Part shown: positions 39,439-40,619 of the stretch, one piece after another
Layout: each line of letters opens with the position of its first letter
Position numbering within the stretch: position 1 is the first letter of the stretch
Source of the DNA: an uncultured Verminephrobacter sp.
GTDB taxonomy: Bacteria; Pseudomonadota; Gammaproteobacteria; Burkholderiales; Burkholderiaceae_C
Direction of reading: 5' to 3'
Assembly (NCBI GenBank): GCA_964466605.1
Contig: CAYXSL010000002.1
Span: 2,871 to 66,870, forward strand
DNA length: 64,000 nt
Program-made: the position numbers and the translations under genes
Notes under the pieces: generated by a model
What the model saw: the letters and a program-made list of their open reading frames with translations, nothing else
What the model was told of the DNA's origin: nothing
Database searches by the model: none

Positions 39439-39690
39439 CTACCCTTGGACAGAGGGGACAAGTTCTTCGCCATTCGACAGGAGAGAGATGGTGCAGCCCT
39501 CATATCCATAAATGATCAGGCCTGCTCTAACTTGCTCAAACTCAACATTGCCGACCAATCCACCACCGCGAACAAAAACTTCAACCCGCTGGCCGGGGAG
39601 GATCAAAAACTGATCGGCCCATGGTTCAACAGTTACGCGTAGTTCAACATCCGAACCATTGATATAGCTGAATCTTTGCAATGTCGTCAT
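39439..39690 (-). CDS. Putative immunity protein (83 aa)
   Basis: Starts 8 nt after the toxin stop with a purine-rich SD; small, no signal peptide. Function inferred from position only. Confidence 0.6.
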   Translation of the reverse strand: MTTLQRFSYINGSDVELRVTVEPWADQFLILPGQRVEVFVRGGGLVGNVEFEQVRAGLIIYGYEGCTISLLSNGEELVPSVQG

Positions 39691-39698
39691 AGTTCCAC

Positions 39699-40619
39699 CT
39701 ATTTCATCAATCGGAGAATTGTGTCCATCAGCTGAACGCGATTCTGAGCGGTCAAGTTGTTAGCGTTTCGAGCAAACTCGTTGGAATAGAAACCACGCCA
39801 TTGCGTGGCCATCTCCCGCGTCAACCCCTGAGCTTGCATCTGACCAACAGCATCGGCTGTCAGTGCCTGAGTCCGTGCAGCGGCGCCTTGAGGGCCAACG
39901 CCCCACCCGATCAGGTTCTTTCCGAACTGCGCCTGCGTCATGGCTTCCGGAATTGCGGGTGCAGCCAATTTCGCAACGGTGGGATCCGTGACCCCCTTTG
40001 CCACAAGGCCAACTTCTGAAGTACCCGACTTCGCAAACACGCCAGCAAGTTTGGCCCCAGCAGGAGCGACGCTACCGCCAACGCCTGTAAACGGCTCATT
40101 GCTCGTCGCAGCATGGTGAAAGTCCACCATGAACAATCCAACCGCTGCGAACACCAGCAGAGGGTGTCTGCCATCCGGGTCCACATACTTGTAGGGGTTG
40201 TTGTTTGCGTATGCGTACCGGTTGAAGGAATGAACATTGTCTTCCTGAAACTCAACCGGATCGATCCCCATGAACCGCCCCACCACCGGGCTGTAGTACC
40301 GCGCCCCCATGTAAGACAGGCCGGTGTTGGGGTCCAGCTGCTTGCCCGCGTACCACAGCTTGTTGTTGGCACCCACCGCAGGCGCCTGCAGCCGGTGCCC
40401 ATAAGGCAGGTAGCTTTCCTTCCAGACCACAGCGCCACTGGCATCTGTCGCCACTGCCGGGCTGCCCAGTACGTCGTTGTGAAAAAACGTGATGCTTGTT
40501 GTCTGCGCGCCGGCTTGGGGGGCCAGCACACCCATAACCAGTAGCAGGGCCAGCAGCGCTGCAAGCCGCACCCACGCGGCGTGGAGCCTGGCGGTCTTTG
40601 TCATCGTCGTCGTAGTCAT
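39699..40619 (-). CDS. Signal-peptide-bearing Rhs-associated core + C-terminal toxin (DUF4951-like tip)
   Basis: Signal peptide ending AGA-Q; FFHNDVLGSP, ESYLPYG, GKQLDPNTGLSYMGARYYSPVVGRF, NRYAYANNNPYKYVDPDGR; then a ~155-aa C-terminal domain. Confidence 0.9.
   Translation of the reverse strand: MTTTTMTKTARLHAAWVRLAALLALLLVMGVLAPQAGAQTTSITFFHNDVLGSPAVATDASGAVVWKESYLPYGHRLQAPAVGANNKLWYAGKQLDPNTGLSYMGARYYSPVVGRFMGIDPVEFQEDNVHSFNRYAYANNNPYKYVDPDGRHPLLVFAAVGLFMVDFHHAATSNEPFTGVGGSVAPAGAKLAGVFAKSGTSEVGLVAKGVTDPTVAKLAAPAIPEAMTQAQFGKNLIGWGVGPQGAAARTQALTADAVGQMQAQGLTREMATQWRGFYSNEFARNANNLTAQNRVQLMDTILRLMK

Follow-up and report, generated by a model that had tools for sequence, protein, structure and literature searches.

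Does the C-terminal end of a small RHS protein encoded by an uncultured Verminephrobacter sp. act as a toxin, and is the 83-amino-acid protein encoded directly behind it the matching antidote? Both genes lie in a stretch of 64,000 nucleotides of contig CAYXSL010000002.1 (hereafter the window, to which coordinates refer unless a locus label is given). A preliminary description, made from the letters of the window, had pointed to an uncharacterised toxin tip after a DPDGR motif and to the small downstream gene as a candidate for its immunity gene. The computational analysis reported here indicates that a polymorphic RHS toxin quite probably has its exchangeable toxic payload in residues 208-306 of the first protein (P0001) and its cognate immunity protein in the second (P0002), because the pairing is kept across carriers and phyla and because known nuclease domains fill the same slot. 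The system itself is of an ordinary kind, a polymorphic RHS toxin with its immunity gene; the payload and the antidote come from uncharacterised families.

The tip belongs to the DUF4951 family

The gene for P0001 (39699..40619, minus strand) encodes a protein of 306 amino acids made of a signal peptide, an RHS-associated core, a linker and a C-terminal domain. This last domain, residues 208-306 (39702..39998, minus strand; KGVTDP...PEAMTQAQFGKNLIGWGVGPQGAAAR...NRVQLMDTILRLMK), matched Pfam family PF16309 (DUF4951) over residues 211-303 and model positions 5-97 of 99, with 93.4 bits and an E value of 9.9e-27, against a curated gathering threshold of 27.3 bits. The likeness to DUF4951 that the preliminary description had noted is consequently borne out. 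The helical C-terminal domain that it had quoted was also correct in sequence, and AlphaFold2, run on a 48-sequence alignment, predicted five helices with a mean predicted local distance difference test (pLDDT) value of 95.4.

The HMMER and Foldseek checks proposed earlier for the tip were run, and they confirmed DUF4951 and left a single structural match. Pfam and NCBIfam returned only the DUF, while phmmer, profile and Foldseek searches of the PDB returned only entry 2MMB, by sequence (E 1.8e-14), by profile (E 1e-32) and by comparison with the AlphaFold2 model of the tip (template modelling score, TM, 0.81; root mean square deviation 1.7 Å). A Foldseek search of BFVD gave nothing beyond 2MMB.

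A HMMER scan of 1.84 billion representative proteins found 248 clusters that match DUF4951 at E<=0.001. The domain ended within about 10 residues of the protein C-terminus in approximately 140 of 149, and its carriers include RHS and PT-HINT pre-toxin domains. It is rare in genomes, being present in 2 of 400 sampled across the class, in 2 of 201 sampled across the family and in none of 14 control genomes, and the sole matches in a search of plasmids were Acinetobacter records of chromosome size. A repeat protein of 1868 amino acids (P0012) with 29 partial matches was discarded as spurious. In a Planctomycetota PT-HINT protein (L016 5563-6225), three successive partial matches to the DUF4951 profile precede the full domain, and these may be partial duplications of the tip.

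The only invariant columns of the 48-sequence alignment are Y71, A84, R87 and L90, which correspond to Y278, A291, R294 and L297 of P0001; P17, G26, W32, G33, G58, W67 and N81 are nearly invariant. This pattern agrees with the earlier remark that no HxH nuclease, deaminase or ADP-ribosyltransferase motif is evident. No motif or fold of the HNH/His-Me, PD-(D/E)xK, BECR RNase, deaminase, ADP-ribosyltransferase (ART), HEPN or Fic type was found for the tip. The conserved polar residues Y278, E281, R284, N285, N288, T290 and R294 lie on the hairpin formed by helix 4, a loop and helix 5, and a glycine-rich GWGxG loop precedes helix 2. In the model, this loop and the polar cluster would suit a substrate that carries phosphate. 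With a median net charge of +2, the toxin domain is mildly basic.

The tip fills an exchangeable slot

The preliminary description had started the tip directly after the cleavage motif. DPDGR does occupy residues 147-151, and a fragment released there would consequently start at H152, at base 40166, the very coordinate that had been given, with the hydrophobic, Gly/Ala-rich stretch that had been noted. As to the extent of the tip, the earlier reading stands for the DUF4951 domain, residues 208-306, which is variable, but not for residues 152-207 (39999..40166, minus strand). These form a constant pre-toxin linker, with a hydrophobic helix-like segment followed by a Gly/Ala-rich part (HPLLVFAAVGLFMVDF...GVGGSVAPAGAKLAGVFAK). 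P0001 is about 94% identical to P0161, which has a Colicin_D tip, and to the differently tipped P0162 as far as residues 209-212 (LVAKG), with no similarity beyond, so that the linker is common to the three proteins; it is absent in the DUF4951-tipped RHS protein P0010. A single-chain RHS protein of 1908 amino acids, encoded on a metagenome contig, shares the final 99 residues with P0001, but another linker precedes them. Since identity ends at residues 209-212 and the same tip is found behind another linker, the exchangeable unit comprises residues 208-306 and the next gene; on this comparison of sequences, the hydrophobic Gly/Ala stretch is part of the constant region and not of the variable tip.

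In the gene for the single-chain protein (L002 2072-10214), a long insert of Cys-rich repeats (YSCSSGWTLSGSTC units) comes between the last strands of the shell, and the small island to which the gene belongs also has AlpA and a tyrosine integrase.

The same slot is filled by many other domains. More than 1,700 proteins of about 300 amino acids have the design of P0001, with a signal peptide and an Rhs core, and carry other tips, among them Colicin_D, EndoU, NucA/NucB, HNH, Ntox10, Tox-REase, deaminase and others. At the syntenic locus of Acidovorax sp. LjRoot74, there are three such cassettes, and behind each of them comes a small gene, in one case Colicin_immun.

The 83-amino-acid protein accompanies the tip

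The gene for P0002 (39439..39690, minus strand) begins 8 nucleotides after the TAG stop codon of P0001 and is preceded by a GGTGG box that resembles a Shine-Dalgarno sequence. To judge from sequence comparison, this open reading frame is a real gene, because homologues with invariant residues occupy the same position in several phyla.

The association of the two proteins was followed with a pattern built on the toxin only. A first alignment (A1) was too diverse for the retrieval of loci, and a narrower one (A2) was used instead, which yielded 21 loci from genome and metagenome collections, some of them duplicates, leaving approximately 17 independent ones. An immunity homologue was found directly downstream and on the same strand in 20 of the 21, a proportion that applies to the FYxNEF[AS]RN subfamily, the only one sampled by the A2 pattern. 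The hosts of the paired loci are Acidovorax, Paracidovorax, Pseudomonas, Variovorax, Granulosicoccaceae, Moraxellaceae and Planctomycetota, and the carriers are RHS proteins, PT-HINT proteins and orphan modules. Pairwise identities of toxin and immunity protein were correlated (Mantel r 0.85, p 2e-4, n = 14), with faster divergence in the immunity protein than in the toxin. This adjacency and co-divergence, both read from sequences, strongly favour the earlier proposal that the small gene is a cognate immunity candidate. In Variovorax defluvii and in a Moraxellaceae metagenome-assembled genome (L015, L017), the immunity gene is retained beside a stump of the toxin. At the one exceptional locus (L023 847-2234), an RHS end bears a divergent DUF4951 tip, and the gene behind it encodes a SUKH-1 (SMI1_KNR4)-like protein of 140 amino acids; SUKH is a known immunity superfamily.

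P0002 is acidic, with a net charge of -5, and the 13 immunity homologues are all acidic as well (net charge -4 to -10) and all devoid of a signal peptide. The statement that the downstream gene has no signal peptide was accurate: P0002 has no N-terminal hydrophobic segment, and its highest 15-residue Kyte-Doolittle mean is 1.24, at residue 57. Residues N11, E22, P23 and W24 (the last three forming an EPW motif), P32, E50 and G74 are invariant in the immunity alignment (A3), and AlphaFold2 predicted an all-beta protein of seven strands (pLDDT 88.6). Searches of Pfam, NCBIfam and the PDB by phmmer and by profile gave no family match for P0002, including Imm*, SUKH and Colicin_immun, and the best Foldseek match of its AlphaFold2 model in the PDB reached an E value of only 0.9. 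Identity as a MazE/AbrB protein was rejected, the matches being below threshold (best E 0.004, in 6 of 13 members) and without structural support. A word-based search for homologues of P0002 returned 5 relatives only, an under-count compared with the many more found by profile searches of the fetched loci.

The carrier is split into two genes with Sec signals

The two genes are part of a set of four open reading frames on the minus strand, which form a 4.7-kb island of low G+C content (52-60%, vs about 69% in the surroundings) flanked by a PAS-GGDEF gene on one side and an EVE-domain gene on the other. One amendment to the preliminary description is that the tip is not where a single long RHS gene ends: P0001 is a separate gene, with its own AAGGAG box 8 nucleotides upstream and its own Sec-type signal peptide, and its ATG overlaps the stop codon of the preceding shell gene (ATGA). 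The signal peptide, residues 1-38 (40506..40619, minus strand), consists of KTAR, a hydrophobic core and AGA/Q, with a hydropathy maximum of 2.9 at residue 19. A signal peptide of the same type, variable in sequence, is present in 117 of 119 homologues besides the window's own, among the matches listed.

The RHS-associated core of P0001, residues 39-151 (40167..40505, minus strand; TIGR03696, E 3.7e-23; Pfam RHS, E 8.5e-07), comprises the last shell strands, the plug and the autoprotease, and aligns to the C-terminal 110 or so residues of solved Rhs/TcC cocoons. The autoprotease motif DPxG...DPxG is found ahead of the toxin, as DPVE at residue 120 and DPDG at residue 147. The body of the shell is encoded by an open reading frame of 932 amino acids composed of YD repeats (40616..43414, minus strand; RHS_repeat, E 2.5e-37; YD_repeat_2x, E 1.7e-25), whose N-terminus is cut off by a frameshift. 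The N-terminal fragment of the shell gene (43396..43995, minus strand), of 199 amino acids, contains a Sec signal (MRYF...VNAQ) and DUF6531 (E 2e-05). The single-chain RHS aligns to the shell as far as ...YIYLGGKAIAE, and its next strand, TTYLHTDGLGS, matches the N-terminus of mature P0001 (QTTSITFFHNDVLGS), so that a loop of the cocoon wall is the place where the genes divide.

The split design recurs: a plug-toxin gene for about 300 amino acids lies -4 to +33 nucleotides after the shell gene and is followed by the immunity gene, and this order was found in five lineages. In Acidovorax LjRoot74 (L003), one shell of 1126 amino acids precedes three complete plug-toxin cassettes. In Acinetobacter (L005/L006 488-4077), the region directly upstream of the split-RHS locus contains three pseudopilin-like (N_methyl) genes and one for a secretin, and in Azonexus (L030 15696-18969) two full sets are followed directly downstream by genes like G, F and E of the type II secretion system (T2SS). 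A further genome (L031), with a shell of 1920 amino acids, and the metagenome copies of the window's own locus have the same gene order. No secretin, pseudopilin or T2SS-like genes flank the Acidovorax loci. Where such genes accompany split loci, they may provide a dedicated export route for periplasmic RHS cocoons.

The features by which Rhs proteins of a type VI secretion system (T6SS) are recognised, linkage to PAAR or VgrG and no signal peptide, were not found here, where both genes start with Sec-type signals and the N-terminus of the shell has DUF6531 only. The marks of Tc toxins were likewise not found: the Pfam matches of the shell are only RHS repeats and DUF6531, and the island has no TcA-like gene. 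The searched literature (Rhs together with signal peptide, secretin, type II secretion or pseudopilin) held no description of a split carrier, which is not proof of its absence; the two-gene, Sec-dependent RHS carrier is unusual and apparently so far undescribed. On another contig of the same genome there is a second, conventional single-chain RHS gene with an open frame of 1559 amino acids (G000 C12:46254-46628).

A proposed course of action and its target

The arrangement suggests a course of events that begins with two polypeptides. The shell protein, with its Sec signal, DUF6531 and YD repeats, is encoded by one gene. The last shell strands, the plug and autoprotease, the linker and the toxin come from another, which is translationally coupled to the first and has a Sec signal of its own. 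Both polypeptides would be exported by Sec and would close into one periplasmic cocoon, as TcB and TcC do. Self-cleavage after DPDG would then free a fragment of 155 residues, the linker plus DUF4951 (residues 152-306). Following delivery into a rival cell, the linker would aid the crossing of the inner membrane and DUF4951 would act in the cytoplasm, while in kin cells the acidic beta-protein would block DUF4951 by 1:1 binding.

We favour a target in the cytoplasm, if with less assurance than the pairing of toxin and immunity protein, because the immunity homologues are acidic and have no signal peptide, and because sister cassettes carry nucleases that act in the cytoplasm together with cytoplasmic immunity proteins. 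The same observations make the cytoplasmic target proposed in the preliminary description a reasonable one. As to the activity, our first guess, a tentative one, is that DUF4951 is an enzyme or a tight binder that acts on nucleic acid or nucleotide by means of the Y278/R294 patch (E281, R284, N285, N288) and the GWGxG loop. A second guess, more doubtful, is that it is a stoichiometric, non-enzymatic inhibitor of an essential protein, and the remaining probability falls to some other activity. We regard as unlikely the more ambitious proposal that DUF4951 tips form a mechanistically new class of antibacterial effectors (five helices, about 95 residues and a Tyr/Arg-centred site), carried by a new RHS weapon in which a separately Sec-exported shell and interchangeable plug-toxins assemble in the periplasm and leave through a T2SS-like secretin/pseudopilin apparatus.

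Alternative explanations

Several observations weigh against a toxin with its immunity protein. In the 48-sequence alignment, no column is invariant for His, Cys, Asp, Glu, Ser or Lys, Foldseek found no relative of known function for either the tip or the immunity protein, and the searched literature held no paper on DUF4951, PF16309 or the protein of 2MMB (the string 2MMB occurs there solely in papers unrelated to that protein). Periplasmic assembly and autocleavage are steps that we infer, and so are the route of export and the passage into a target cell. Furthermore, a clade of Acinetobacter DUF4951 proteins of about 130 amino acids with a signal peptide (L024-L029), which includes the protein of 2MMB, keeps the same conserved polar residues as the tips, and its loci have no carrier and no immunity-like neighbour; the conserved neighbours are mlaA, gigA (SpoIIE phosphatase), gigB (STAS), a CN-hydrolase gene, osmC and gspE. 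Since these proteins stand alone, are exported and have no immunity gene, the fold is not proven toxic: either an activity common to the clade and the tips does no harm beyond the cytoplasm, in the manner of secreted RNases, or the fold as such is not toxic, and it may have a benign function. The domain could then serve, once secreted, for benign binding or as a structural element, with the 83-amino-acid protein as a chaperone or an unrelated small gene, in keeping with the housekeeping synteny of the Acinetobacter orthologues without a partner gene, with the lack of a catalytic motif in DUF4951 and with the lack of experimental results on it in the searched literature. This is nevertheless very improbable in view of the position of the domain at the extreme C-terminus, past the Rhs cleavage motif and in the slot that nucleases fill in sister cassettes, of a pairing kept, with co-divergence, on RHS, PT-HINT and orphan modules across phyla, of the orphan partner genes that persist beside degraded toxins, and of the SUKH-type partner of the divergent DUF4951 member. 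The signal peptide of the Acinetobacter clade, which implies work outside the cytoplasm, would also suit a toxin directed at the envelope or periplasm of the target cell, be it at membrane, peptidoglycan or lipid, and so would the Sec export of the plug-toxin protein itself and the hydrophobic segment ahead of DUF4951. There is little to recommend this site of action, however, when none of the 13 immunity homologues has a signal peptide, a lipobox or a membrane segment, whereas immunity proteins against periplasmic toxins are normally exported; when the domain is soluble and amphipathic, with no hydrophobic helix pair; and when the hydrophobic linker is shared with the Colicin D cassette, whose toxin is a cytoplasmic tRNase.

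The state of the shell gene raises a different objection. The 932-amino-acid open reading frame is 97% identical to residues 198-1126 of the intact shell of 1126 amino acids from Acidovorax sp. LjRoot74, and the 199-amino-acid fragment is 95% identical to its residues 1-199. The frame changes at shell residue 198/199, where one C is missing (ACC -> AC) just before a run of A (43396..43414, minus strand; CAT AC- AAAAAAA TAA here vs CAT ACC AAA AAA ATA in intact relatives), and the shell of the closest metagenome copy (L007, with 94% identity in DNA) is interrupted independently, by an in-frame TAG at 2024-2026 (RGVP*TENQ, where the window has Q). Both lesions count against a working system, and the locus may be decaying; because the shell gene has lost one base, delivery of the tip is probably impaired in this genome. 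The locus could thus be a decaying remnant in which the toxin and immunity genes are intact, a shell without signal peptide blocks delivery and only immunity is useful to the cell. We give this reading a substantial chance, though one short of even. It is favoured by the two independent lesions and by the Variovorax and Moraxellaceae loci that retain the immunity gene beside toxin stumps, and countered by the source genome being a draft of 378 contigs (90% complete), so that an assembly error is possible, and by the plug-toxin and immunity genes being undamaged here, as they are in the L007 copy. In addition, slippage by -1 on A_AAA_AAA, ahead of the TAA, would give back the wild-type HTKKITD exactly, though this is a matter of speculation. 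The A-run has 7 bases in all copies, intact relatives included, and phase variation by its length was rejected as a switch at the shell, the window differing by the missing C instead.

Significance and comparison with known systems

An exchangeable DUF4951 payload with its cognate immunity protein would matter in several respects. Polymorphic toxins have repeatedly led to enzymes of new kinds, among them DddA base editors, (p)ppApp synthetases and RNA ADP-ribosyltransferases. DUF4951, which is compact and has a solved structure, now has a biological context and a dedicated inhibitor family; its activity is therefore directly testable in E. coli, with a specificity control built in. A split carrier with arrays of plug-toxins behind one shell would allow several warheads at once without recombination, and it points to T6SS-independent export of RHS cocoons in Gram-negative bacteria.

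Barnase with barstar, and colicins E3 and D with their immunity proteins, likewise combine a small basic toxin and, encoded alongside, a small acidic inhibitor that neutralises it in the cytoplasm. The likeness of the present pair to these is an analogy only, with no relation in sequence or fold, and a nuclease activity of DUF4951 is a guess. The closest relative by structure is the Acinetobacter baumannii protein of 2MMB (YP_001712342.1, solved by nuclear magnetic resonance), which has the same family, the same fold and the conserved W, Y, N and R. It differs in being a stand-alone, exported protein of about 130 amino acids, encoded near gigA/gigB without carrier or immunity gene.

Among carriers, WapA of Bacillus subtilis is a Sec-exported YD-repeat toxin with a tRNase tip. 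The system described here shares with it the Sec-dependent RHS/YD carrier, the polymorphic C-terminal toxin and the cytoplasmic immunity protein. WapA, however, is a single polypeptide of a Gram-positive cell wall, whereas here an outer membrane has to be crossed as well. Among the polymorphic toxins that are built on RHS/YD repeats and have an immunity gene downstream are Dickeya dadantii RhsA/RhsB-RhsI, Pseudomonas Tse5 and Acinetobacter Tse15. The locus resembles Rhs toxins in its YD-repeat shell, its RHS core with DPxG...DPxG, its variable C-terminal toxin, its downstream immunity gene and the orphan modules found in relatives. It is unlike them in that shell and plug-toxin have separate genes, both of them starting with a Sec signal, that no PAAR, VgrG or other T6SS part is present at the locus, and that both the toxin domain and the immunity family are uncharacterised.

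The TcB and TcC proteins of Tc toxins (PDB 4O9X, 6H6E) offer the nearest parallel for a divided shell. Here, in contrast, only about 110 shell residues are on the second protein, both proteins have Sec signals, and there is no TcA translocator; the target should be bacterial and not insect, because neighbouring cassettes carry antibacterial nucleases with immunity genes. What the two systems have in common is a cocoon of two polypeptides, the second of which carries an aspartyl autoprotease and a hypervariable toxic end, and the presence of several alternative second subunits behind one first subunit, as in the three cassettes of the Acidovorax LjRoot74 locus.

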